Assembly: GCA_016177025.1 (NCBI GenBank)
Contig: JACOWB010000007.1
Location: 7,751-71,750 of the forward strand
Reading direction: 5' to 3'
Length of the DNA stretch: 64,000 nt
From: Candidatus Aenigmatarchaeota archaeon
GTDB lineage: Archaea > Aenigmatarchaeota > Aenigmatarchaeia > CG10238-14 > SCSR01
Shown: piece after piece, positions 10,992-35,039 of the stretch
Position numbering within the stretch: the first letter of the stretch is position 1
How the letters are laid out: each line of letters starts with the position of its first letter
Notes under the pieces: model-generated
Told to the model about the DNA's origin: nothing
Databases searched by the model: none
Seen by the model: the letters and a program-made list of their open reading frames with translations, nothing else
Position numbers and translations under genes: made by a program

Positions 10992-12086
10992 ATGGAAATA
11001 ATTGAAGATACTATTAAACCTGCTGTAGAATTTTTCAAAATAATGAAGAGGGGAAGTAAAGTTGCCATAGTTCATGGTCATGATAATGACAGTATCTGTT
11101 CTGCGGCTATAATATACAAATTGTTGAAAATTGTACATAAGACTGAAGCGAGATTGATTGTATCTGGATTAAATTCTGCGGTCACGGAAGATGCTATAGA
11201 AAAAATCAAAAAAATCAAACCCGACTATGTAATCATAGTGGATATATCCGATGTTCCTGTAAGTATTTTGACAGAACTTAGAAACATTTCACAAGTAATG
11301 ATTATAGATCACCACGTACCAAAAGGTTATGTTAAGATAATATACGTGAATCCGAGAGTTTTTGACAGGGAAATTTATTTGCCCGCGACTTATCTTTGCT
11401 ACAAAATTTACGAAAAGTTTTTGGATGTGGAAAAAATTCTCTGGATATCTGGCATTGGAACACTGTCTGATATGGGAATGAAAAATTGCAGTGACCTGTT
11501 TGAAAGTATCAAATCAAACGACAAAGAACTGATTGGAAACAATGAAAACATAGATGAAATTTTGTTTGATAATTCTTTACTTGGCAAATTGGCGAAGATG
11601 TTTGACAGCGGTAGAGTTGTTGTGGGTATTGATGGTTCTGTATCGGCGTTGAATGTCTTGCTTAAATCGGAAAACTATCAGGAAGTCTTACAAGGAAAGT
11701 ACGGAAGTAAAAACTTGTTGGGATGGTATTCTGTCTCAGAGAAGGAATTCAACCGACTTGTGAAAGATTTTGAGAAAAAGAAGAAACGGATTAAAAGATT
11801 TGTGATGTATGAAGTAAAGTCGAAGTATAATATGAAATCTCCGCTGGCTACTTATTTGTCTAAGATTCTTACGAACGAAGTTCTTGTGATATATCAGAGG
11901 TCTGGAAAGTACATCGATGTCAGTTTCAGGAGAGGGAAGGTTTGTATTGTGGATTTGAACCAGCTGGCTGGAAATTCTGTCAAGGATATACCAGACTCGA
12001 ATGGCGGTGGGCATATTCAGGCGGCAGGTGCGAGGTTTCCGGCCCGCTATTTAGACAGATTTCTGAGAAATTTAAAGTCTAAGTAG
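10992..12086 (+). CDS. DHH/DHHA1-family phosphoesterase (NrnA/RecJ-like)
   Basis: 364 aa. Motifs HGHDNDSICSA, IIVDISD, IIDHH and GTLSDMG, plus the DHHA1 motif GGGHIQAAGA. Confidence 0.85.
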   Translation: MEIIEDTIKPAVEFFKIMKRGSKVAIVHGHDNDSICSAAIIYKLLKIVHKTEARLIVSGLNSAVTEDAIEKIKKIKPDYVIIVDISDVPVSILTELRNISQVMIIDHHVPKGYVKIIYVNPRVFDREIYLPATYLCYKIYEKFLDVEKILWISGIGTLSDMGMKNCSDLFESIKSNDKELIGNNENIDEILFDNSLLGKLAKMFDSGRVVVGIDGSVSALNVLLKSENYQEVLQGKYGSKNLLGWYSVSEKEFNRLVKDFEKKKKRIKRFVMYEVKSKYNMKSPLATYLSKILTNEVLVIYQRSGKYIDVSFRRGKVCIVDLNQLAGNSVKDIPDSNGGGHIQAAGARFPARYLDRFLRNLKSK

Positions 12087-23729: not shown

Positions 23730-25925
23730 TTAGCTGTAAAACTTTAAGACATTCTGTTTTTCTTCATTTGATTTTTCCTTCTCTACAGACTGTTTCTTAA
23801 TCTCATTTGCAATTTTTAATCCTATGACTGATGACAATTTTTCAATAGATACTTTCCGCAACTTATCGAGTGTATCTAGCCCTGCATTGAAAAGTCTGCG
23901 TGCCCTTACTCGTCCTATACCTTTCAATCTTACCAGAGGTGTTAGTTCTTCCTTGATGCCGTACTTCAATCTTACTCGCAACTTCCTTATTGCAGTTAAA
24001 ATTTCTTTATATCCGCTTAATAGAGCTAGCTCATGTAAAGAATATATCAGCCAATCTACTAACAAAAGCTTGTTGTGAAGTTCGCCTGGCGCCATTTTGA
24101 ATTTGGTAAGAATCTGGTCTTCTGATGCTTCATCGGTCCATCTTTCGAACATAAGCGCCATTTTTATGGAAGCGTGAAAATCCACAAATTCCAAATCATA
24201 TTCTTCTGGAATCTGATGTAAAATATGTTGATACCTTTGCAGAATTACATCGTCTATTTCAGATTTTTCTGAATCCCTTACTGATAATATTGGTCTCATT
24301 TCCAGAGAATTTGAAATTAGCTGCAGAAAACTGAATTCTGTAACCATTCTTTTTCTGGACATGTCCAAAGAATTCAGAAATTGATGCGCTGTCAAAGGAT
24401 CTATATAAAGTTCTGAAACTCTTTTTCCTATTTTGGTGGCATTTAATCCGTATTTGCTTCTTACAATAAGATTCCATTTCAAAAGTTGCTGTAAAATTTC
24501 GTATAATTTTTCTCTTATGGCATCTATATCACCATAATGGAGTGCATAGAATGTTCTGTCAAAAAATTCGAAGAGTGACTCTTCAGAGTTGCAAAATTCG
24601 CTTGAAATTAAAGCTAAGGTATGCATTCTTAACACAGGCTCTAATGCAAGCTTGGATGTTATATCTTCTGGTTGACCAAAAATAAAACGCTGTATCAGGT
24701 CTTTGGCTTCATCTTCCGATTTTGCAAGTAATATCGATTCGCCATATGCATCATATTGAGGCCTTCCGGCTCTGCCGACGAATTGCTTATATTCTAGGAC
24801 TGGGATGTAGCTGGATCCTATCCCTTGATAATACCGTTTGGCGTCTCTAATCAAGACCCTGAATGCCGGTAGATTAACACCCATTGCCAATGTAGGTGTA
24901 GCAACAATCGCTTTTATCTTGCCTGTTCTGAAACTCTCTTCAATTAGAGATTTTTGTTTTCCTAACAATCCTGCATGATGGAATGCCACGCCGTTCCTTA
25001 TACATCCTGCCAATTTCTTACATTGTTGTGTGGGATATTCAAGCACACCCTCCACTTCTTTGCATAACGAGTCCAGGTTCGTCTGTTCGTCGCCTTTCAG
25101 TTTGAATTTGACTGTTTTGCACAATCTTTCGGCTAGGCTCTCGGCATTTTTTCTAGTAGCCGTAAATATCAAAGCTTGCTTGTTCAACTCTAGAGTATTC
25201 TGAACTATAGCATTTTCTACATCTTCGGAATTGTTCAGCTCATAACCGTCCTTTTCATCGAAGTGTATTTTTGAATTGAAAGAAACCCCTTCGTATAATT
25301 TGACGGGTCTGAAATCGCTTATAACTAGTGACGCATTAATCCATCTTGCCAACTCATCGGCATTACTGATTGTTGCTGACAAACCGAGAATCTGCGACTT
25401 TGGTACAATTTTCATGAGCTTTGTTAGTAGAATTTCTAAAGTTGGTCCGCGGGACGAATCATTTAACATGTGTATTTCGTCAACAACTATTAGACCTATC
25501 CTCTTCACCCATTCTACATTGTGTCTCAATAAACTGTCCAATTTTTCATTTGTCAAACAAATGACATCATAATCGGCCAACCGTGGATCAGAGGAATCCA
25601 AATCTCCAACGCTGATAGCGACTTTAAAGTCTCTCCCAAAGAAATTTTTGAAATAGTTGTATTTTTCTCTCGCCAATGCTACAAGAGGGGCTAGATAAAC
25701 AATTTTATGCATTTTCATCTGCAGCAGAGTGTGCAACATTGCCATGGTCGCAATTAAAGTCTTTCCACTGGCTGTCGGCAAGGAGAGTATTAGATTTCTT
25801 TCTTTGAATAACCCTTTCCTGATCACGTCTTCCTGTGGCTGGTACAGCTCTGAAATTTTTTCTTCCTTCAGCTTGTCTACATACTTTTCCGGTATGCCGA
25901 ACCCGGATAACTCTTCTACCCTCAT
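23730..25925 (-). CDS. hel308: Hel308/Hjm-type Ski2-like DNA helicase
   Basis: 731 aa. Motif I PTASGKT, motif II DEIH, SAT and VATPTLAMGVNLPA, with winged-helix, ratchet and C-terminal HhH (RLKGIGRVRARRL) domains. Confidence 0.92.
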   Translation of the reverse strand: MRVEELSGFGIPEKYVDKLKEEKISELYQPQEDVIRKGLFKERNLILSLPTASGKTLIATMAMLHTLLQMKMHKIVYLAPLVALAREKYNYFKNFFGRDFKVAISVGDLDSSDPRLADYDVICLTNEKLDSLLRHNVEWVKRIGLIVVDEIHMLNDSSRGPTLEILLTKLMKIVPKSQILGLSATISNADELARWINASLVISDFRPVKLYEGVSFNSKIHFDEKDGYELNNSEDVENAIVQNTLELNKQALIFTATRKNAESLAERLCKTVKFKLKGDEQTNLDSLCKEVEGVLEYPTQQCKKLAGCIRNGVAFHHAGLLGKQKSLIEESFRTGKIKAIVATPTLAMGVNLPAFRVLIRDAKRYYQGIGSSYIPVLEYKQFVGRAGRPQYDAYGESILLAKSEDEAKDLIQRFIFGQPEDITSKLALEPVLRMHTLALISSEFCNSEESLFEFFDRTFYALHYGDIDAIREKLYEILQQLLKWNLIVRSKYGLNATKIGKRVSELYIDPLTAHQFLNSLDMSRKRMVTEFSFLQLISNSLEMRPILSVRDSEKSEIDDVILQRYQHILHQIPEEYDLEFVDFHASIKMALMFERWTDEASEDQILTKFKMAPGELHNKLLLVDWLIYSLHELALLSGYKEILTAIRKLRVRLKYGIKEELTPLVRLKGIGRVRARRLFNAGLDTLDKLRKVSIEKLSSVIGLKIANEIKKQSVEKEKSNEEKQNVLKFYS

Positions 25926-25973
25926 GAATAGAATGTCTATTTAAAATATTTTTGTTTTATACATTGTGATGGA

Positions 25974-26957
25974 ATGATAGCTTTAGGCATTGAAAGCACC
26001 GCCCATACATTTGGCGTTGCAACCGTGGATGAAAGAGGGAATATTCTATCTAATTCTAGAGATATGTTCAAACCTGAGTTGGGAAAGGGGTTCACGCCCT
26101 ACGAGCTCGCAGAGCACCATTACGGTATATCCGGCGAGATTCTGGATAAATCACTCAAAGAGGCCAACATTACATGGGATAGTATAGATGTTGTCGCTTT
26201 TTCACAGGGGATGGGAATACCGAACTCTTTAAAGGTGGGCGCCGCCTTAGCAAGATACCTCTCCCTAAAGTACAGTAAACCATTGATTGGTGTCAACCAT
26301 GGCATTGCCCATATAGAAATAGGCAAGTTGAAAACCGGTTCTAGTGATCCTGTTATTGTATATCTGTCTGGAGGAAACTCCCAGATTCTTGCATATGTAA
26401 GCGGCAGATATAGGGTATTTGGAGAGACCCAGGATATACCCGTAGGAAATGCTCTGGATGTCCTTGCACGTGAACTGGGGTTGCCTATGCCAGGTGGGCC
26501 TGAAATCGAGAAGATAGCTAAAAACGGTGGCTTCACCGACCTTCCATATGTCGTCAAGGGGATGGACATGTCCTTCACAGGAATAATGACGGCCGCCATA
26601 GAAAAATTCAAGGAAGGTGTTAGAAAGGAGGATATAGCATATTCTATGCAGGAAGTCTGCTTTTCCATGCTAACCGAGGTTACTGAAAGGGCTTTGGCAC
26701 ACACCAATAAAAAAGAAGTTTTGCTTGTAGGAGGAGTTGCTGCTAACAAGAGATTACAGGAAATGATGAAGGTAATGTGCGAGGAAAGAGGTGCGAACTT
26801 TTATGTCGTCCCGCAAGAATATGCGGGCGATAATGGATCGAATATAGCTTGGGCTGGTATTTTGGTTTATAATTCGAATGGAAAGCTTTCTGTAGAAGAC
26901 AGTCGTGTAAAGCAAAATTGGCGCACAGAAGATGTGGAAATAACCTGGCTTAAATAA
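25974..26957 (+). CDS. kae1: tRNA N6-adenosine threonylcarbamoyltransferase Kae1
   Basis: 327 aa. IALGIESTAHTFGVA, VNHGIAHIE and GGVAANKRLQEM. There is no fused Bud32 kinase. Confidence 0.93.
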   Translation: MIALGIESTAHTFGVATVDERGNILSNSRDMFKPELGKGFTPYELAEHHYGISGEILDKSLKEANITWDSIDVVAFSQGMGIPNSLKVGAALARYLSLKYSKPLIGVNHGIAHIEIGKLKTGSSDPVIVYLSGGNSQILAYVSGRYRVFGETQDIPVGNALDVLARELGLPMPGGPEIEKIAKNGGFTDLPYVVKGMDMSFTGIMTAAIEKFKEGVRKEDIAYSMQEVCFSMLTEVTERALAHTNKKEVLLVGGVAANKRLQEMMKVMCEERGANFYVVPQEYAGDNGSNIAWAGILVYNSNGKLSVEDSRVKQNWRTEDVEITWLK

Positions 26958-27213
26958 GCTCGTTCTCGCTGATTATAACAAAATCGCCAATAGACTTAAC
27001 CGAGCTGAATGGCACTAGCATCCTTCCCTTATCGTCTGTCTTTAGATTTAACTCTGTAAGGTGCCTCGTAGGTTGGTCCACGACTATGTTCATCAGTTCG
27101 CCGCTTTCTGTCACAAAATCGACGTTTGTCACCACTCCAAACTTTCGACCAGTTTCCTCGCTGATTATAGTCTTGCCGACGACATCACCAGCACGTATTC
27201 TTGACTCACCCAT
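26950..27213 (-). CDS. PRC-barrel domain protein
   Basis: 87 aa. GKTIISEETGRKFGVVTNVDF...G.L..IVV is the PRC-barrel pattern. Confidence 0.7.
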   Translation of the reverse strand: MGESRIRAGDVVGKTIISEETGRKFGVVTNVDFVTESGELMNIVVDQPTRHLTELNLKTDDKGRMLVPFSSVKSIGDFVIISENELI

Positions 27214-27254
27214 AAAACTCTGAATATAATTAGGTTGTTAATTTAATAAAGTTT

Positions 27255-27785
27255 ATGGTAAGAGTTTTCGTCGGAATCACTGTACCAGCAGATATTAAAA
27301 GATATGTGATGGGTATTCAAAGTGGGCTTGTAGCGTTGCCTGCCAAAACAAAATTTGTAGAATCTGAAAATTTACATGTAAGTTTATCGTTTCTGGGTGA
27401 GATTGATGAAAACCACATCGAAAGTATAAAATCTAAGCTTGTCGCGTTAGCCAATTTGCACGAAAAATTTAAGATTGCATTTGGTGGGTTAGAATTGATA
27501 CCGAATGGACAATTCATAAGGGTTATCGCATTGGCTGTTAAGAGCGGCTATCTTGAAACCCTCAGAAAGGAGATTGTCAAAACTGTTGGAGGTGAGAGTC
27601 ATCCTGCACATTTAACATTGGCAAGAGTATCCAATGTGGCAGAAAAGAAGAAATTTGTTGATGTAATCAAAGAGATTAAATGTGAAGAAAAAAATATGCT
27701 TGTCGGAGATATCTGCTTAATCCAAAGTACCCTGCAAAAGCATGGACCGTTATACACGGTCTTGCACAAAAGTTATTTAAAATAG
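27255..27785 (+). CDS. thpR: RNA 2',3'-cyclic phosphodiesterase (2H family, ThpR/LigT)
   Basis: 176 aa with two HxS/T motifs: HVSLSFLG and HLTLARV. Confidence 0.88.
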   Translation: MVRVFVGITVPADIKRYVMGIQSGLVALPAKTKFVESENLHVSLSFLGEIDENHIESIKSKLVALANLHEKFKIAFGGLELIPNGQFIRVIALAVKSGYLETLRKEIVKTVGGESHPAHLTLARVSNVAEKKKFVDVIKEIKCEEKNMLVGDICLIQSTLQKHGPLYTVLHKSYLK

Positions 27786-27821
27786 AAGCTGAATTCTTCT
27801 ATGGTGTTTTCCAGCATATAA

Positions 27822-28610
27822 TCAAAGCAGTTCCGTTATATCGCATTCTGTGACTATACCTTTCAGGACATTTTTTTCGGTTATCACAGGTAGTCCGCTT
27901 ATTTTATTTTCTATCATCATCTTTACAGCGCTTGAGACGTCCTCATGAGGATGTACAAAAAATACATGAGGCGTCATTATAGATTCGGTTTTATTGTGCA
28001 TCACTGTAGGATTATAGTTTGATCCGTCAAGATATCTTAGGATATCCTTCCCTGTGACTATGCCTATCATCTCATTTTTTTCCACAACTGGCAACCTCCT
28101 GTATTGTGTGTTCACCATGGTTTTCATGCATTCTAAAATCGAAATATTTTGAGTTATAAAAAAGGGCTTATGGGACATTATATCACCGACTGCGACACCG
28201 AGATACTTTTCGTAAAGTATTTTTACAAAGTCTGACTCTGAAACCATCCCCAACAGTTTATTTTTCTTTATCAGAGGCAATCCGTCTCTTTTTGAGATTT
28301 TCATTTTTTTCAAAACAAAATCGATGCTTTCACTTGGCTCGCAGAACACAACTTCCCGTGTCATAAATTCCGATATCTTTACATTTTTTGACAAACCTCT
28401 TAGCAAAGCGTCAAGTATGTCCATATAAGTCACGATTCCGACAATCTCCTGCCTTTTTGAGACTACTGGTATACGCCTATGGTCGGAGGAAAGTATTGTT
28501 TTCACGACAGTGGACAAACTCTCGAATTCAAATGCGTAGGAAGGAGCCAGATTAGCGATATGTATAACGCTTTCCGCTTTGCTTATACCCAAATCTTCTA
28601 ATTTTATCAT
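27822..28610 (-). CDS. CBS-domain protein (four CBS repeats)
   Basis: 262 aa with repeated ...P.V......GIVT..DI... modules. Confidence 0.8.
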   Translation of the reverse strand: MIKLEDLGISKAESVIHIANLAPSYAFEFESLSTVVKTILSSDHRRIPVVSKRQEIVGIVTYMDILDALLRGLSKNVKISEFMTREVVFCEPSESIDFVLKKMKISKRDGLPLIKKNKLLGMVSESDFVKILYEKYLGVAVGDIMSHKPFFITQNISILECMKTMVNTQYRRLPVVEKNEMIGIVTGKDILRYLDGSNYNPTVMHNKTESIMTPHVFFVHPHEDVSSAVKMMIENKISGLPVITEKNVLKGIVTECDITELL

Positions 28611-29149
28611 AATTCCTTTTCTTCTCTGCAGTCGTCACATATCCACTGATCTTCAACGTTCCTCAAATCTTCCGAGTAGTTATCGCATGAATCGCATAAA
28701 CCGATCGTGATTCGCTCCTTCAGCGTAAAAGGTTTTTCTTTCATCTTAAGTCTATACTCGAGCAAATCCAGCATTTCTGGCGAAGTTTTAGCTATGTCCG
28801 TTAAAGACACCACACCCGCCAAACGTCCTTCTGATAAGACAGTCAATCGGTGAACGTTGTTTTGTTTCATTTTTCTTGTCGCCGAAAGAATGTCATCTTC
28901 CTTGTCTACAGCTATTATTGGTTCGTGCATTAAATCGGCCAACTTCACTTTATCGGCCTTGATGCTTTTGCATACTATCTCTGTGATTAAATCGCTCTCG
29001 GAAATAACACCTGCTGGGTTCCCATTCTTCACAACTACAAGAAATCCCTTTCTATGCTTGCGCATTAGTTTTCCTGCATCACGAGCAGTCTTTCCTATGC
29101 CTATTGTTAGAACCGGGGACGACATTACATCCTTAACAAGAACCGCCAT
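28607..29149 (-). CDS. CBS-domain pair protein with a C-terminal zinc ribbon
   Basis: 180 aa with two CBS repeats, then CDSC-x16-CDDC. Confidence 0.8.
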   Translation of the reverse strand: MAVLVKDVMSSPVLTIGIGKTARDAGKLMRKHRKGFLVVVKNGNPAGVISESDLITEIVCKSIKADKVKLADLMHEPIIAVDKEDDILSATRKMKQNNVHRLTVLSEGRLAGVVSLTDIAKTSPEMLDLLEYRLKMKEKPFTLKERITIGLCDSCDNYSEDLRNVEDQWICDDCREEKEL

Positions 29150-29184
29150 CTGAACACCTATAATCTATTGTAATTTGTCGGATA

Positions 29185-29511
29185 TTAATAAACCTTGAGA
29201 AAAGATTTCAACAATTCGCCGTCTGCCCCGGTTATTTTCTGATTCGGTGGCAGAATTCTTATTTTATTATATCCAAAATCGACAACCAAGAAGAACGGAA
29301 ATCCCTCAAACTCGTGTTTATTATAGCCGTAGTAGTAAAGGGTTTTTTTGTTTGTTGATTTGATTTGCAGTAAAATGCATCTGCCTTTTTTCAGACAAAT
29401 AAGATCAGCTTCACCCAGGCTCGCCCCCGCACGTATGACCGTCCACCCAGACTTTTGAAACAATAATCTGATTTTTCTCTCTACTCTATACCCCTTTCTC
29501 TTTGTGTGCAT
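29185..29511 (-). CDS. hjc: Holliday junction resolvase Hjc
   Basis: 108 aa. KGYRVERKIRLLFQKSGWTVIRAGASLGEADLICLKKGRCILLQIKST carries the nuclease-fold E...D...QxK motif of archaeal Hjc. Confidence 0.8.
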   Translation of the reverse strand: MHTKRKGYRVERKIRLLFQKSGWTVIRAGASLGEADLICLKKGRCILLQIKSTNKKTLYYYGYNKHEFEGFPFFLVVDFGYNKIRILPPNQKITGADGELLKSFLKVY

Positions 29512-29543: not shown

Positions 29544-30224
29544 ATGACTAACATAGCTGTCATAGGGTGTATACATGGGGATATAGAAAACCTCATGAGA
29601 TTCTTGGATAAGATGGCACTTCTGAAGATAGATATTTTAGTCTGCCCTGGCGACTTTACAGACTTTACGACCCAAAAGGGATTTACCAGACTCGACATCG
29701 GCAAGATAATTTTGGAAGAGCTCAGGGGTCTAGGCAAACCGATTCTTACAGTCCCAGGGAGTTGGGATGGTGAGTTGCTTGGATTTTTGAAAAAGGAGAA
29801 TGTTAGTATTCACGCGGAAGGGAGGATGATAGAAGATATAGGGTTCTACGGATACGGGGGTGCCAAGACGCCGTTCAACACCCCATTCGAACCAAGTGAG
29901 GGGGAAATAGAATTGGGCCTTGAAAAGGCGTATAATGAAATCAAAAAAGCGAAAGTAAAGATACAAATCACCCATGCGCCCCCATTCGGAACAAAACTTG
30001 ATGTTATAGCTAGCGGTGCCCATGTTGGGTCGGATGTTGTGAGGAATTTTATAGAATCTAAAAGTCCCGATGCTGCGATATGCGCGCATATACATGAAGG
30101 CAGGGGTACTGATGTGCTCGAAAAGACGAAATTAATAAATCCTGGTAGATTTCCAGAAGGTTATTTGGGTCTTGTTGAGGTTAATGATTCCAAAATAATA
30201 ACAAAAGTAACAAGTCTAATATGA
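29544..30224 (+). CDS. calcineurin-like metallophosphoesterase
   Basis: 226 aa. Motifs GCIHGD, PGDFTD, GSWD, THAPP and HIHEG. Confidence 0.85.
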   Translation: MTNIAVIGCIHGDIENLMRFLDKMALLKIDILVCPGDFTDFTTQKGFTRLDIGKIILEELRGLGKPILTVPGSWDGELLGFLKKENVSIHAEGRMIEDIGFYGYGGAKTPFNTPFEPSEGEIELGLEKAYNEIKKAKVKIQITHAPPFGTKLDVIASGAHVGSDVVRNFIESKSPDAAICAHIHEGRGTDVLEKTKLINPGRFPEGYLGLVEVNDSKIITKVTSLI

Positions 30225-30293: not shown

Positions 30294-30683
30294 ATGGTCG
30301 GTCTCATTTCTACAGTTTTCGAATCTACACAAAGAGATAATATAAACTCTGATTTGGAAAAGGCAATTGTTTTGGCGGAAAAATTAGACTTTCTAGACAT
30401 ACAATTACTGAGGAAATTTTATATGAATGGAAAGGAATACCCCTTTAACCACCAGCCATATTGTTTTCCATTATTATTCAGTGAAATGAAGGTTAGCCAT
30501 AAAATAAAAATTGGTATGGAAGCTTTGAGGAAGAGGTTGAATAATATGGTTGACCTTGGATTATTGGAGAAAATCAAACATTCAAACCCAGCAAATTACG
30601 GGCCTATTGTAGATAAATCACTTTTCATACGTGCTGTAATAACAAAATTCTTTGTGATAAATGGGTTAACTAAATTTTTATAA
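30294..30683 (+). CDS. putative winged-helix DNA-binding protein
   Basis: 129 aa. LDIQLLRKFYMNG...MEALRKRLNNMVDLGLLEKI is HTH-like. It borders the AT-rich spacer. Confidence 0.5.
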   Translation: MVGLISTVFESTQRDNINSDLEKAIVLAEKLDFLDIQLLRKFYMNGKEYPFNHQPYCFPLLFSEMKVSHKIKIGMEALRKRLNNMVDLGLLEKIKHSNPANYGPIVDKSLFIRAVITKFFVINGLTKFL

Positions 30684-30698
30684 TGTTTTCTACAAATA

Positions 30699-30755
30699 AT
30701 TATGATGTTTCCTAAACAATTTTATTATCTTTCCTCTTAAATATTATGATGTTTC
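30699..30755. repeat. 13-bp direct repeat ATTATGATGTTTC, two copies
   Basis: Copies at 30699-30711 and 30743-30755, inside the 320-bp AT-rich intergenic region. Confidence 0.75.
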
Positions 30756-30832
30756 AAACGAATAACGTTAAGTTTTCTTCCCACGTTTCATATAGACGTA
30801 GAAAAACTAACTTCGCTTCTTAGTTATTATAA

Positions 30833-30862
30833 ATAATTTAATAATTTAATAATTTAATAATA
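30833..30862. repeat. tandem 8-mer repeat (ATAATTTA, three copies plus a partial one)
   Basis: Read directly: ataatttaataatttaataatttaataata. Confidence 0.8.
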
Positions 30863-30971
30863 ACTATGTTATATATATAAATATATTTTCTTAAACTAAA
30901 AAAAACAATCAAATTTTATAATACAGCCTATTACAACTTCTAATAGAAAGACCATAGTTTTCCACAGAATG

Positions 30972-30980
30972 TTTATAAAA
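30972..30980 (+). promoter_or_regulatory. TATA-box-like element (TTTATAAAA) about 28 nt upstream of the 31004 ATG, implying a leaderless transcript
   Basis: The sequence and spacing fit an archaeal promoter. It is bracketed by the 8-bp inverted repeat ATAGTTTT/AAAACTAT (30954-30986). Confidence 0.35.
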
Positions 30981-31003
30981 ACTATACATCATTATTATCT
31001 GAT

Positions 31004-31261
31004 ATGAAAAGAGGCAGACCTAATATAAGACAAACAATACAAACAAACATCATTACCATATTAGACCGTATGGGTACGCCAATTACCATCTCTACACTTC
31101 TCAGAGAGATAACTACAACAATCAGTAGAAAGGTAAGTTGGAACACTATACAAAAATACACACAAGAACTTGTAGAAAGCGGTAGAATTCAGGCGACACA
31201 ACTACCCCATTCAAAGAAAGAAAACCAAAACGGTCTCGTTGTGTATACTTTAAAAAAGTAG
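31004..31261 (+). CDS. small winged-helix DNA-binding protein
   Basis: 85 aa. ITILDRMGTPITISTLLREI...SWNTIQKYTQELVESGRIQ is HTH-like. Confidence 0.55.
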   Translation: MKRGRPNIRQTIQTNIITILDRMGTPITISTLLREITTTISRKVSWNTIQKYTQELVESGRIQATQLPHSKKENQNGLVVYTLKK

Positions 31262-31279
31262 AAATACTCTACCCTTTAT

Positions 31280-32329
31280 ATGGAAAAGAATGATATCCTT
31301 AAGGAGTTTCTAAATCAGGGTTTGCAGGTTGATAGTGCCGCATTAGATATACTAATGGATAATAAAAAACTATTTGAGGAGGTTCTGAAGATTGGAGGTA
31401 AAGGATTACCGACAGTTATTACCAAGGAGTTTCTTAGTTCCCTATCACCAGCACACGAAAAAATTTCAGTGGAAAAATTATCGGAAATAGTGAAATATAG
31501 GTACATGTTTATCAAAAAATTACTTTTAGATAAAATGTCTGGCAATGTAATATCTATAAATAAAATAAGTGAAAAGACAAAAGATTTTTCCGTTATAGGG
31601 TTGGTTTCCACCAGAAATGGCAATATAACACTTGAAGACGCAACCGGAAAAGATAATTTTAAAGCTGATGATGAAAGCAGTAAAAATATTGTGGAAGATG
31701 AAGTGGTAGGCTTAATATGCAGTCGTAAAGATGGAACAAATCATATCAATGAAATCATCTTTCCTGATATACCACTACGCAGGTCATTTACAAAAGGAGA
31801 GCTGGCAAGGAAAGCAATATTCATTTCCGGAACACTTGACAAAAACACATACGATAAGTTGGTCGATAAAATTAAAATTGAACATAATGCAACGGTTTTT
31901 ATTTTAGGCGGAACAATACCAGAGGGCGAACTGAAAAAATTCACATCAAATACACCCTACACAACGCACGTATACACAAGTACTTTGCAGAATCATCCTG
32001 TTAGCGTAGAGATAGACACTGTAAAACTACTTTTTTTAAATGGCCATGATCTTGATTACTATAGAAAAATATGGACCGATTTCGATACGTTAATAATAAA
32101 TCTGCTGAAAAAAAGAAATTTTCACCCAACGATAACCCCTCAATCATATGATAATAGGTTCCTAGTAGAAACGGTACCGGATATAATTATCATAACCGAC
32201 GCAGAAGATACGAGAGACTTGAATTATAAGGGCACTACTATACTGACCATGGAGAGTATTGATAAGAAACCTATATACTGGCTAATAAATTTACAAACAC
32301 GAGAAACATTTAAAACTGTTTTATCATAA
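31280..32329 (+). CDS. DP1-like DNA polymerase small (B) subunit with a degenerate phosphoesterase domain
   Basis: 349 aa. Has a DP1-type N-terminal helical domain, then an OB fold (FSVIGLVSTRNGNITLEDATG...VVGLICSRKDG...IFPDIPL). The PDE-like C-terminus has its metal-ligand motifs replaced: ISGTLD, ILGGTIPEG, STLQNHP and ITDAED. LLKKRNFHPT...LVETVPDIIIIT matches the DP1 pattern LLK.RHLAPT...LVIEEVPD. Confidence 0.75.
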   Translation: MEKNDILKEFLNQGLQVDSAALDILMDNKKLFEEVLKIGGKGLPTVITKEFLSSLSPAHEKISVEKLSEIVKYRYMFIKKLLLDKMSGNVISINKISEKTKDFSVIGLVSTRNGNITLEDATGKDNFKADDESSKNIVEDEVVGLICSRKDGTNHINEIIFPDIPLRRSFTKGELARKAIFISGTLDKNTYDKLVDKIKIEHNATVFILGGTIPEGELKKFTSNTPYTTHVYTSTLQNHPVSVEIDTVKLLFLNGHDLDYYRKIWTDFDTLIINLLKKRNFHPTITPQSYDNRFLVETVPDIIIITDAEDTRDLNYKGTTILTMESIDKKPIYWLINLQTRETFKTVLS

Positions 32330-32338
32330 ACTTAGAAT

Positions 32339-35026
32339 ATGAATGTAGAATTTCAACTCCTTGATTGCGATTACACAACAATTAACAACAAGGCGATAGT
32401 AAGATTCTTCGGTAAAACAAAGTCTGGCAAATCTGTCTGCGTCTTTTTCAAAGGCCAGCAACCGTATTTCTACATATCCACAAAAACTCCATTAAAAGTT
32501 GAAAAATTCGTCAAGGAAAAATTCAAGAATATTGTGGAGAGGATAGAAACTGTTTATCGCTATGATCCAATTGGATACAAGAAAGATAAAAGTCAACTGT
32601 CGAAGTTAATTCTTACAGATCCGTCCCAAGTACCGATAGTTAGAGACACTTTACAAAAGGAAAAGTTGACAGATGAAATATATGAAGCAGACATTTTGTT
32701 CAAATATCGGGTCATGGCAGACTTGGGAATTTCAGGCTTCAAATGGATTGAAGCTGAGGGGCAGTCTGTTAGAACAGGAACGGTTAAAGCAGATATTGTT
32801 CTGGAGGCGACAAATCTTAAAGAAAACGCCAGTCTTGAAAATTGCGACCTTAAGTACATGTCGATTGACATCGAAACAATCTCGGAAGAAGGAGTGCCAG
32901 ATCCTAAAAAAAACATCATTGGTATGATAAGCATATCATTTTTTCCGAAATTCGATTCTGAAGACTCGATTGTTCTGGTGAGCAAACTTTTCTCAAAAAA
33001 TAACAAGAGCGTAAAAGTCTTCCCCGATGAAAAGGCAATGTTGCAAGAGTTTCTAAAGATTCTGGAAAGTTATGACCCGGATGCAATCATAGGCTATAAT
33101 ATCAATAATTTCGATTTTCCTTATATTCTCACGCGATTACGAGAAAACAACCTATCCCTAATGCTTGGAAGATGTAATCAGAAACCCTCCTCTTCAAGAA
33201 AGATCGGATCATACAACAAAAGCTCGTTGACAGGCCGAATAATCGTAGATGCATACGAACTGGTGAAAGAGTCTATAAGAAAAGGCAATTTAAGGCTAAA
33301 ACGATTAGGTCTCGGTGATGTGTCTCGTGAACTCCTAAATGATACTAAGATCGATGTATCGCATAGCGAAATTTTCGGTCATTGGCACGGCGACGTAAAT
33401 CAAATAAGCAAGTTGGCAGAATATGCCCGTAAAGATTCTGAGTTGGCATTAAGATTAATCTTGGAAAGGGGATTTCTTGACAAATTTTTCGAGCTCAGTA
33501 AAGTATCAGGACTTTTGCTGCAGGATTGCCTAGACGGTGGGGAGGCACAGCGAGTAGAAAACCTTCTTCTCAGAGAATTTAATAAAAACGATTTTGTACT
33601 TCCATGTAAACCAGCCGAAACTTCTTCCACGGAAGTACAGGATCTGAAAGGTGCTTTGGTTCTTGAGCCAAAAACTGGATTGCACACGGGCAATATAGTT
33701 TACCTCGATTTCAAATCTATGTACCCGTCTATTTTCATTGCATATAACATTTGCCCAACGACTACGCTTACCGGTAAACAGTACAATGTCGAAACAATTA
33801 CAACACCATATAAAACAAGATTCGTCGCAAAAAATGTCAGAGAGGGCATAATGCCGCAAATATTAAAACGCTTAATAGACGAGCGTGATAAAGTGCGGGC
33901 CGAAGAAAGAGCGGCATCAGATAGGAACGTCCGACGCCTTTTAGGAGCCAAACAAGTGGCGCTTAAAATCATGACAAACGCGTTTTACGGATATACAGGA
34001 TATGTAAGAGCTCGGCTATACGTTCTTGAAATTGCCAATACCATCACTGGTTGCGGGAGATATCTCATAAACAAAACCAAGGAAATCATAGAAGACAAGC
34101 TTGGTCAGGATGTGGTTTACGGCGATACGGATTCTATAATGGTTAAAACAAGTGACAGTGCCATTGAAGATGCTTATAATACGGGAAAAAAACTTGAGAA
34201 TGTGATTAACAAAGAACTTGAAGGCATAGTGCAAATGAAGATTGAAAAGATTTTCAAATCGCTTTTGATTCTTTCCAAAAAGAGGTACGTAGGTCTAGCT
34301 TATGAGAAATTCAACGGGGATTGGAAAGAGGAAATGGTAATGAAAGGGATTGAAACTGTTAGGAGGGATTGGTGTGATGCGGCGACCAAAACACTATTTG
34401 AAGTGCTAAATATCCTTCTTAAGGAGCAGAATCCTAAAAGGGCTCTCAATTACATAAAAGATTTTCTCCAAAAATTAGAGCGAAATGAAATTCCAATTGA
34501 AGATCTGGTTATCACGAAAAGTATTTCCAAATCCATTGCGGCTTATAAGGGAATACAACCGCATGTCGAATTGGTGAAAAAAATGAGAAAAAGAAACGGT
34601 AGTGCGCCAGGAGTTGGTGATAGAGTGAGCTTCGTGATAGTTAAAGGCATGCAACTTCTTTCCGAAAGAGCAGAAGACCCTGATTACGTAAAAAACAACA
34701 AAATACCCATCGATTCCAAATATTACGTAGAAAACCAAATACTACCTCCGTTGGAGAGGGTATTCGAGGTTATAGGTATAAGCAAGATAGAACTTCTTGG
34801 TATAGGTAGGCAAACCTTGCTGAAGGAAATCTTCGGAAATAGCAGAGTTTCTAGCAATGGCAACTCACTTGAGGCATCACTAGACAACTTTGATGGCTTC
34901 GCATGCGTAAAATGCGATAAATCGTATAGGAGAATCCCATTGATAGGCAAATGTTTTGACTGTAGTGGCGAAATAGTTTTCGTTTCTAGTAACCAAAAAT
35001 CAAGACACGTCGAGTCGCCCGTGTGA
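32339..35026 (+). CDS. polB: family B DNA polymerase with an extra C-terminal zinc ribbon
   Basis: 895 aa. Exo I is SIDIET, Exo II is IIGYNINNFDFPYI and Exo III is YARKDSELA. Pol motif A is DFKSMYPSI, motif B is KIMTNAFYGYTG and motif C is YGDTDS. The C-terminal CVKC-x13-CFDC lies at 34904-34963. No intein. Confidence 0.95.
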   Translation: MNVEFQLLDCDYTTINNKAIVRFFGKTKSGKSVCVFFKGQQPYFYISTKTPLKVEKFVKEKFKNIVERIETVYRYDPIGYKKDKSQLSKLILTDPSQVPIVRDTLQKEKLTDEIYEADILFKYRVMADLGISGFKWIEAEGQSVRTGTVKADIVLEATNLKENASLENCDLKYMSIDIETISEEGVPDPKKNIIGMISISFFPKFDSEDSIVLVSKLFSKNNKSVKVFPDEKAMLQEFLKILESYDPDAIIGYNINNFDFPYILTRLRENNLSLMLGRCNQKPSSSRKIGSYNKSSLTGRIIVDAYELVKESIRKGNLRLKRLGLGDVSRELLNDTKIDVSHSEIFGHWHGDVNQISKLAEYARKDSELALRLILERGFLDKFFELSKVSGLLLQDCLDGGEAQRVENLLLREFNKNDFVLPCKPAETSSTEVQDLKGALVLEPKTGLHTGNIVYLDFKSMYPSIFIAYNICPTTTLTGKQYNVETITTPYKTRFVAKNVREGIMPQILKRLIDERDKVRAEERAASDRNVRRLLGAKQVALKIMTNAFYGYTGYVRARLYVLEIANTITGCGRYLINKTKEIIEDKLGQDVVYGDTDSIMVKTSDSAIEDAYNTGKKLENVINKELEGIVQMKIEKIFKSLLILSKKRYVGLAYEKFNGDWKEEMVMKGIETVRRDWCDAATKTLFEVLNILLKEQNPKRALNYIKDFLQKLERNEIPIEDLVITKSISKSIAAYKGIQPHVELVKKMRKRNGSAPGVGDRVSFVIVKGMQLLSERAEDPDYVKNNKIPIDSKYYVENQILPPLERVFEVIGISKIELLGIGRQTLLKEIFGNSRVSSNGNSLEASLDNFDGFACVKCDKSYRRIPLIGKCFDCSGEIVFVSSNQKSRHVESPV

Positions 35027-35039
35027 CATCATATTTCAA

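Follow-up and report, generated by a model that had tools for sequence, protein, structure and literature searches.

The 64-kb window analysed here, a stretch of an Aenigmatarchaeota genome, encodes a homologue of DP1, the small subunit of archaeal DNA polymerase D (PolD), immediately followed by a family-B DNA polymerase (PolB). We consider it highly probable that this gene pair is the main replicative polymerase locus, in which a Pol-delta-like PolB, equipped with the zinc finger of DP2 (PolD's large subunit), docks an inactive B-subunit derived from DP1. The pair is real but already known. Kazlauskas et al. (2020, NAR; PMC7544198) described the 'B6-aenigma1' PolBs and the inactive DP1 clade 'Aenigma_GB_GCA_002789635-like', reported that DP2 is absent from most Aenigmarchaeota and that inactive DP1 co-occurs with B6-aenigma1 PolBs, and already proposed for this group both the link to eukaryotic B-subunits and a holoenzyme of PolB and inactive DP1. 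Subsequently, AlphaFold3 modelling and yeast two-hybrid analysis indicated that DP1 binds PolB fused to a DP2 C-terminal domain (PolB-DP2CTD) in two clades, Aenigmatarchaeota and Baldrarchaeia, with the aenigmarchaeal domain being termed a 'degenerate' DP2CTD (PMC12680538; Nat Ecol Evol, 2025). The window thus holds another member of a described group and amounts to a rediscovery. The main texts of the two papers are silent on how the genes are ordered, on operon structure and on any third gene. The adjacency of the two genes at the DP2 position, the series of motif decay, the selection estimates, a PCNA-interacting protein (PIP)-like box and an upstream winged-helix gene appear in neither main text and are modest additions that may be new.

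Organization of the gene pair

The two genes are co-directional on the forward strand and consist of open reading frames at 31280-32329 (349 amino acids [aa], DP1-like) and 32339-35026 (895 aa, PolB), the stop codon TAA of the former being separated from the ATG of the latter by nine nucleotides (ACTTAGAAT). The overall span (31280-35026), the two protein lengths and the nine-nucleotide gap had been given in an earlier note on this DNA and agree with the sequence. The 349-aa protein is 100% identical to HYS62_00835, a hypothetical protein from a Candidatus Aenigmarchaeota metagenome-assembled genome (MAG), which identifies the window as part of a DPANN archaeal chromosome, and its neighbours are housekeeping genes, including those for Hel308, Kae1, an RNA 2',3'-cyclic phosphodiesterase, CBS-domain proteins and Hjc. 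The gene directly downstream of the DP1-like gene encodes PolB rather than DP2. As had been noticed earlier, no DP2 gene is present in the window, where the only other open reading frame longer than 540 aa is that of the 731-aa Hel308 helicase.

To place the pair in context, contigs were scanned with 18 of the closer sequences, retaining one genome per species, which yielded 26 loci from Aenigmatarchaeota or uncultured archaea (designated by the prefix L). In every one of them, the DP1-like gene is followed, after a gap of 3-9 nucleotides, by a gene for a PolB of 891-906 aa. One canonical DP1 was also recovered, in the DPANN comparator L027, where the genes are arrayed in the order orc1/cdc6-DP1-DP2. 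By this comparison PolB occupies the position of DP2, which suggests that the DP2 core was replaced in place.

DP1-like small subunit and its phosphoesterase site

When used as a single query, the 349-aa protein retrieves nothing from PDB or Pfam, including Metallophos, so that its homology to DP1 is visible solely through the family profile and NCBIfam. The NCBIfam DP1 model NF003118 matches the OB region (E=2.5e-16, 59.7 bits, far under the 445-bit cut-off), and a profile built from 62 family sequences matches the DP1 structures 6knb_A (E=5.7e-36) and 5ihe_A (E=1.1e-31) across both the OB and phosphoesterase domains. The AlphaFold2 model (predicted local distance difference test [pLDDT] score 89.2, predicted template modelling score 0.77) comprises three domains: an N-terminal helical domain at the position of the DP1 N-terminal domain, DP1N (aa 1-56; 31280..31447), an OB barrel of five strands (aa 102-160) and a phosphoesterase-like domain of the alpha/beta type (aa 178-349; 31811..32326). 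The N-terminal domain is folded into helices 3-12, 19-27, 29-38 and 49-55, with a pLDDT of about 90, and is conserved within the family. The OB feature, delimited as aa 101-160 and followed by the IFPDIPL connector (aa 160-166; together 31580..31777), aligns to the OB domains of 6knb and 5ihe. The model agrees with the DP1 layout that the earlier note had read from the sequence, namely, a helical domain, an OB fold ending in IFPDIPL and a phosphoesterase-like domain. In a Foldseek search with the model, the top match is Pyrococcus abyssi DP1 (9f2a_A; E=1.5e-18, query-based TM-score 0.67), followed by the human and yeast B-subunits of Pol delta (p50, 7e-16), Pol epsilon (3e-14), Pol alpha (1e-10) and also Pol zeta, with unrelated metallophosphatases, such as Vps29, not appearing before about 1e-6. 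The protein displays the hallmark of the DP1/eukaryotic B-subunit superfamily, an OB fold followed in one chain by a calcineurin/Mre11-like phosphoesterase fold, and is a member of this superfamily with a degree of homology far beyond chance.

The metal-ligand positions were assigned by MAFFT alignment with the canonical 608-aa DP1 of L027 (Undinarchaeales), which scores 496 bits against NF003118, above the cut-off. Active DP1 proteins carry five motifs, DxH, GD, GNHD/E, H and GHxH, and all five metal or catalytic motifs are lost from the 349-aa protein. Motif I changes from SDVH in L027 to SG--TL in the window (31823-31840), motif II from GD to GG (31901-31927), motif III from GNHD to STLQ (31979-31999), motif IV from His to Asn (32036-32050) and motif V from GHVH to TDAE (32192-32209), and the segment between motifs II and III is shortened. 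A local HMMER alignment to 6knb, in which the 'GD' strand of the family was laid on the canonical GNHD strand, was dropped in favour of the global MAFFT alignment, where GD falls on GD. Judged from this alignment, the metal site is destroyed. The comparison with DP1 that had been suggested as a check therefore found the ligands not intact, and the substitutions listed earlier proved essentially right, except that the 'NH' of STLQNHP, which relatives do not conserve, falls out of register with the canonical NH, and that the His-to-Asn change of motif IV had been omitted. A destroyed metal site in a B-subunit homologue also bears out the parallel that had been drawn with the inactivated B-subunits of eukaryotic Pol alpha, delta and epsilon.

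PolB and its C-terminal zinc module

The 895-aa protein encoded at 32339..35026 (+) is a family-B polymerase of the Pol-delta-like, 'B6-aenigma1' type, recognized by Pfam (PF00136, 2.4e-116; PF03104, 2.9e-36), NCBIfam (TIGR00592, 5.4e-115) and PDB searches. Its best PDB match is human Pol delta p125 (6s1m_A; E=5.2e-105, 355.6 bits), ahead of Thermococcales PolB (about 331 bits) and Pol alpha (247 bits). We retrieved 1065 homologues at E<=1e-30, and the named close homologues are all from Aenigmatarchaeota. The exonuclease motifs (32867..33439, +) are intact, with Exo I DIET at residues 177-180 (32867-32878), Exo II NINNFDFPY at 254-262 (33098-33124) and Exo III YARKDS at 362-367 (33422-33439). 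The same holds for the polymerase motifs (33707..34288, +), which comprise motif A DFKSMYPS at 457-464 (33707-33730), motif B KIMTNAFYG at 543-551 (33965-33991), motif C YGDTDS at 594-599 (34118-34135) and the KxY motif as KKRY at 647-650 (34277-34288). All motifs that had been described as intact were found, and by these motifs the enzyme is predicted to be proficient in both polymerization and proofreading. One close PolB homologue, P0323 (1335 aa), contains an intein with Pfam intein splicing and LAGLIDADG domains; the PolB of the window has none.

Between the thumb and the zinc module lies a PIP-box-like motif, QTLLKEIF (aa 825-832; 34811..34834, +), which probably binds PCNA. The corresponding G.G[KR]Q..L motif occurs in 105 of 120 homologues and is conserved in the alignment of the loci.

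The C-terminal module, CVKC-DKSYRRIPLIGK-CFDC, occupies aa 856-875 (34904..34963, +). Its position is as reported earlier, but the spacer between the two Cys pairs is 12 residues long rather than the 13 previously counted. The last 215 residues of PolB contain no Cys other than these four, which form a single motif followed by about 20 residues. NCBIfam DP2 models match PolB at aa 853-884, and a profile of the module from 20 relatives significantly matches only DP2 chains in PDB, those of Thermococcus kodakarensis (6knb_B, residues 1128-1157, E=4.8e-11) and P. abyssi (6hms_B, residues 1120-1149, E=2.2e-9), and no eukaryotic C-terminal domain (CTD). The eukaryotic CTDs are characterized by CysA and CysB motifs flanking a helical segment, which the single Cys4 motif of the window PolB does not reproduce. 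By these comparisons, the zinc module is homologous specifically to the zinc finger of DP2 and is a putative docking site for the B-subunit. The earlier proposal that it serves as the docking analogue for the B-subunit is supported with respect to the DP1-partner role, whereas its sequence kinship is with DP2 and not with the eukaryotic CysA/CysB. The module is present in 119 of 120 database homologues of PolB and in every PolB of the 26 loci that is not cut by a contig end. The number of residues after the last Cys is small (median 18 among the 119 homologues), and the domain is therefore a stripped-down DP2 CTD of about 40 aa.

These features bear directly on the possibility that the 349-aa protein is the small subunit of a PolD whose DP2 is encoded elsewhere in the genome, with PolB being an independent repair or lagging-strand enzyme and its Cys module incidental. 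PolD and PolB do coexist in many archaea, and our search for DP2 covered the 64 kb of the window. Nevertheless, a Cys module specifically homologous to the DP2 zinc finger and carried by nearly all PolB homologues is hardly incidental, the two genes stay closely linked in 26/26 loci, and loss of the five exonuclease motifs would leave such a PolD without proofreading. Moreover, two independent surveys (PMC7544198, PMC12680538) report Aenigmatarchaeota lacking DP2, and DP1 binds PolB-DP2CTD in the yeast two-hybrid assay (PMC12680538). We regard this explanation as very unlikely.

Graded motif loss and selection on the small subunit

The survival of the phosphoesterase motifs varies among Aenigmatarchaeota, with four, two, one or none of the five left. 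L014, L023, P0025 and P0031 retain motifs I, II, IV and V, with motif III reading GEID, GEVD, GDID and GELE, respectively; L001/P0002 keep motifs I and II, and several loci keep motif I alone. No motif is left in the window, L008, L012 and L018-L025, a range that includes L023, also listed with four of five. Irrespective of the motif count, every DP1-like gene is partnered by the same kind of PolB, and the series could show the stepwise inactivation of a eukaryotic-type B-subunit.

The small subunit evolves faster than its partner. Its non-synonymous substitution rate (dN) is higher than that of PolB by a factor of 2-3.5 in every pair compared, and identity among relatives is 28-47% for the DP1-like protein versus 54-73% for PolB. 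For L016/L017, in which both phosphoesterase sites are dead, the DP1-like gene has a ratio of dN to the synonymous rate (dS) of 0.24, compared with 0.09 for PolB; this pair alone gives a reliable ratio, dS being saturated (>1) in the others. Selection on the DP1-like protein is purifying but relaxed, which is what one would expect of a scaffold that no longer serves as an enzyme.

The same figures could be read as the signature of a functionless relic that has been decaying neutrally since the loss of DP2, with PolB working alone, and the complete degradation of the active site, the elevated non-synonymous rate and the low identity among relatives all accord with this. Neutral decay, however, would be difficult to reconcile with a dN/dS of 0.24 between two genes whose phosphoesterase sites are both dead, or with a reading frame that has stayed intact and constant in size across 26/26 loci and over 140 database homologues. 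Furthermore, non-catalytic segments, for example NYKGTT, KKRxLxP and PDIP, are invariant in the family, the fold is predicted with high confidence, the gap of 3-9 nucleotides to PolB is conserved and an interaction has been published (yeast two-hybrid; PMC12680538). That the gene is a relic appears extremely unlikely.

Synteny and genomic context

Upstream of the gene pair, synteny with housekeeping genes extends over about 9 kb in 19-22 of the 26 loci; the downstream side is not kept. This arrangement is relevant to the idea that the module is not a component of the host replisome but part of a virus or an integrated mobile element, an idea that finds some encouragement in the possible mobile-element origin of B6 PolBs considered by Kazlauskas et al. 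(PMC7544198). Besides the upstream synteny, it is opposed by the scan of IMG/VR viral contigs, which recovered no relatives of the small subunit, by a nucleotide composition that is not anomalous apart from an AT-rich intergenic stretch, and by the absence of a flanking integrase or repeats. We accordingly give this possibility next to no credence.

One MAG (JZ-1_201709_bins_39) contains two different operons of a DP1-like gene and a zinc-module PolB, L011 and L020 (JAWBTN010000023 and JAWBTN010000025), each identical to operons in other MAGs (L012/L013 and L021), reflecting either a genuine duplication or a mixed bin.

Proposed mechanism and comparison with known polymerases

The PolB plus inactive-DP1 holoenzyme put forward in the earlier note finds support in the clade-level inference of PMC7544198, the yeast two-hybrid and AlphaFold3 results of PMC12680538 and the coupling in 26/26 loci. 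In such an enzyme, PolB would perform both synthesis and 3'-5' proofreading, and the zinc finger inherited from DP2 would dock the protein encoded upstream. Since PolB brings its own exonuclease, DP1 could dispense with its Mre11-like phosphoesterase site, and the inactive B-subunit would be retained as a non-catalytic scaffold or recruitment module, as are Pol31/p50, Dpb2 and Pol12. The catalytic core of DP2 would have been replaced in place, with only the DP1-binding zinc finger retained, while the PIP-like box probably binds PCNA and the B-subunit, through its N-terminal domain, probably anchors the enzyme to other parts of the replisome. That this domain has a GINS-binding role, like DP1N of T. 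kodakarensis, is a guess suggested solely by where it lies. Whereas homology, motif states, synteny and selection were observed directly and the subunit interaction is documented for the clade in the literature, we infer the in-place replacement, PCNA binding, replisome tethering and role as sole replicase.

Several points weigh against this interpretation. The CTD is very short, about 40 aa, and has no counterpart to the helical portion present in DP2 and in eukaryotic CTDs, and the subunit interface may differ from those of PolD and Pol delta. The docking of the B-subunit by the zinc finger is extrapolated from the yeast two-hybrid and AlphaFold3 results for the clade (PMC12680538) rather than from this particular pair. 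For the genome as a whole, that neither DP2 nor another DP1 is encoded rests on phylum-level literature, our own search for DP2 having covered the window. The placement of PolB in the B6 group of the Delta-like clade is putative, with indirect support from human Pol delta being its best PDB match and from the Aenigmatarchaeota source of all named close homologues. Finally, sequence searches with the N-terminal domain detected no similarity to DP1N of known structure or to Pfam families, and sequence comparison could not establish its identity with DP1N.

The closest counterpart is the B6-aenigma1/PolB-DP2CTD plus DP1 system, which comes from the same phylum, likewise has an inactivated DP1 partner and is reported to lack DP2. 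The window shares with this group a single CxxC-x12-CxxC zinc module matching DP2, an Aenigmarchaeota host and an inactive DP1, and no DP2 gene is present within its 64 kb. Baldrarchaeia of the Asgard archaea, the other archaeal lineage reported to retain DP1 without DP2, fuse PolB3 to a DP1-binding, DP2-derived CTD, but theirs is a full-length DP2CTD, formerly mis-binned as 'B6-aenigma2', as opposed to the degenerate, single-zinc-finger form of Aenigmatarchaeota (PMC12680538).

Archaeal PolD (P. abyssi 5IHE/6HMS/6T8H, T. kodakarensis 6KNB) shares with the window pair the domain order and fold of the small subunit (N-terminal, OB and phosphoesterase domains), the homologous zinc finger (FxCxKCxxxYRRxPLxGKCxxCGG) and the order of the small-subunit and catalytic-subunit genes. 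By contrast, the catalytic subunit in the window belongs to family B and not to the double-psi beta-barrel DP2. The small subunit has a destroyed nuclease site and falls about 250 aa short of the DP1 of L027, its linkers and loops being shorter, and only about 18 residues of the CTD are left past the zinc finger.

Eukaryotic Pol delta (p125/Pol3 with p50/Pol31) and, in a wider sense, the B-subunit complexes of Pol alpha, epsilon and zeta resemble the window pair in combining a PolB that has its own proofreading and a Cys-rich C-terminus with an inactive B-subunit of OB and phosphoesterase domains. A PIP-like motif between the thumb and the CTD is likewise shared, p125 is the closest solved relative of the window PolB, and p50 matches the B-subunit model with the E-value given above (7e-16). 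The window PolB differs in having one Cys4 motif instead of CysA and CysB, without an Fe-S-type CysB or a helical CTD, and its zinc module has no detectable sequence similarity to eukaryotic CTDs. In addition, no Pol32/p66-like third subunit was detected. Given that eukaryotic replicases hold a dead DP1-like B-subunit through the Cys-rich C-terminus of PolB, the archaeal counterpart shows that a PolB/PolD chimera could arise within archaea, as has been argued before and in part put to the test (Kazlauskas et al., 2020, PMC7544198; PMC12680538, 2025). The additions reported here may help experimentalists to choose constructs and to seek a third partner.

Winged-helix gene and its upstream region

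Eighteen nucleotides before the DP1-like gene lies the first gene of the unit (31004..31261, +), which encodes an 85-aa protein with an AT-hook-like tail and a winged helix. It directly precedes the DP1-like gene in about 24 of the 25 loci that have upstream sequence. We found approximately 398 homologues, nearly all of exactly 85 aa and from Aenigmatarchaeota wherever the source is named, and the protein is better conserved than the B-subunit. Its start, MKRGRP, is in our reading an AT-hook-like core. The AlphaFold2 model (pLDDT 89.6) adopts a canonical winged helix-turn-helix fold, for which the top 50 PDB fold matches are weak and generic (E>=1e-3), including PadR-like regulators, RTP, Fur and Hop2; Pfam likewise gives only generic, weak winged-helix matches. 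Two candidate identities were considered. A relationship to Pol32/p66N, a winged-helix domain that binds the B-subunit, is unsupported by the fold search, as p66N (3e0j), which the protein does not match, is not among these 50. A remnant of the C-terminal winged-helix domain of Orc1/Cdc6, an idea prompted by the orc1-DP1-DP2 array of L027, was rejected at an hhalign probability of 0.3%.

A TATA-box-like element, TTTATAAAAA (30972..30981, +), is located about 23-32 nucleotides before the ATG of the 85-aa gene and is probably the promoter of the three-gene unit. A purine-rich transcription factor B recognition element (BRE) with a TATA box (GAAAGTTTATAAAAA) occurs at the same distance in L001-L004, L006, L007, L010 and L015. 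This BRE/TATA element, conserved in the closer relatives about 30 nucleotides before the ATG and the only candidate promoter recognizable for the unit, points to joint transcription of the 85-aa, DP1-like and PolB genes. At the other end, a terminator-like hairpin with a T-rich tail (35014..35035, +), a candidate proposed from a consensus match, overlaps the PolB stop codon; the genes past 35035, for PssE/PssD-type glycosyltransferases, lie on the opposite strand, convergent with PolB.

The spacer at 30676-31003 (320 bp, 21% GC) contains four TTATGATGTTTC-like direct repeats spaced by 22 bp (30676-30777), a AATAATTTA repeat tract at about 30833-30862 and, in the interval from the TATA box to the start codon of the 85-aa gene, the repeat core in inverted orientation (30986-31001). 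The long AT-rich spacer is itself conserved in other loci; the TTATGATGTTTC-like repeats are not, and beyond BRE/TATA no operator motif is common to all loci. The spacer may function as an array of operators or as some other element, regulatory or origin-like, and the repeats and the inverted core would suit an autoregulator, which we consider the most likely role of the 85-aa protein. It is possible that the polymerase has three components, the 85-aa protein being a dedicated DNA-binding accessory subunit, analogous to a third subunit or a processivity factor, and not just a regulator, but we give this a rather modest chance. A fortuitous neighbour is unlikely.

A second, shorter winged-helix paralogue (75-82 aa, ending in ...GKVTTYKLK) is found in some lineages (L018, L020, L023 and L024; L011-L013, L022 and L025). 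In L018, L020, L023 and L024 it stands in tandem, immediately upstream of the 85-aa gene, and in L012, L022 and L025 it replaces the latter directly before the DP1-like gene.

The 85-aa, DP1-like and PolB genes (31004-35026) share one reading frame, being separated by TAG plus 18 nucleotides and by TAA-ACT-TAG-AAT. This is probably a coincidence, with a chance of about 1 in 9; read-through or fusion products of the three-gene unit would stay in frame.

Other genes in the window

DNA repair and recombination genes located upstream (23730-29511) are syntenic across the phylum and include those for the Hel308 helicase (23730-25925, -) and for a resolvase of the Hjc type (29185-29511, -). The gene at 10992-12086 encodes a RecJ-like nuclease. 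Far upstream (1029-1117, +), ARAGORN predicts an 89-nucleotide tRNA-like gene, to which it assigns no identity and an anticodon of four bases, ttta; this may be a mis-parsed intron-containing archaeal tRNA.

About 1 kb upstream of the gene pair, a stand-alone calcineurin-like metallophosphoesterase of 226 aa (29544-30224, +; Pfam Metallophos, 6.9e-16) displays variant motifs (CIHGD / GDFTD / GSWDG / HAPP / HIHEG), and its position is kept in 20 loci, 1.7-2.5 kb before the DP1-like gene. Between this gene and the 85-aa gene, 22 of the 26 loci encode a 129-aa protein without a family match, located at 30294-30683 (+) in the window.

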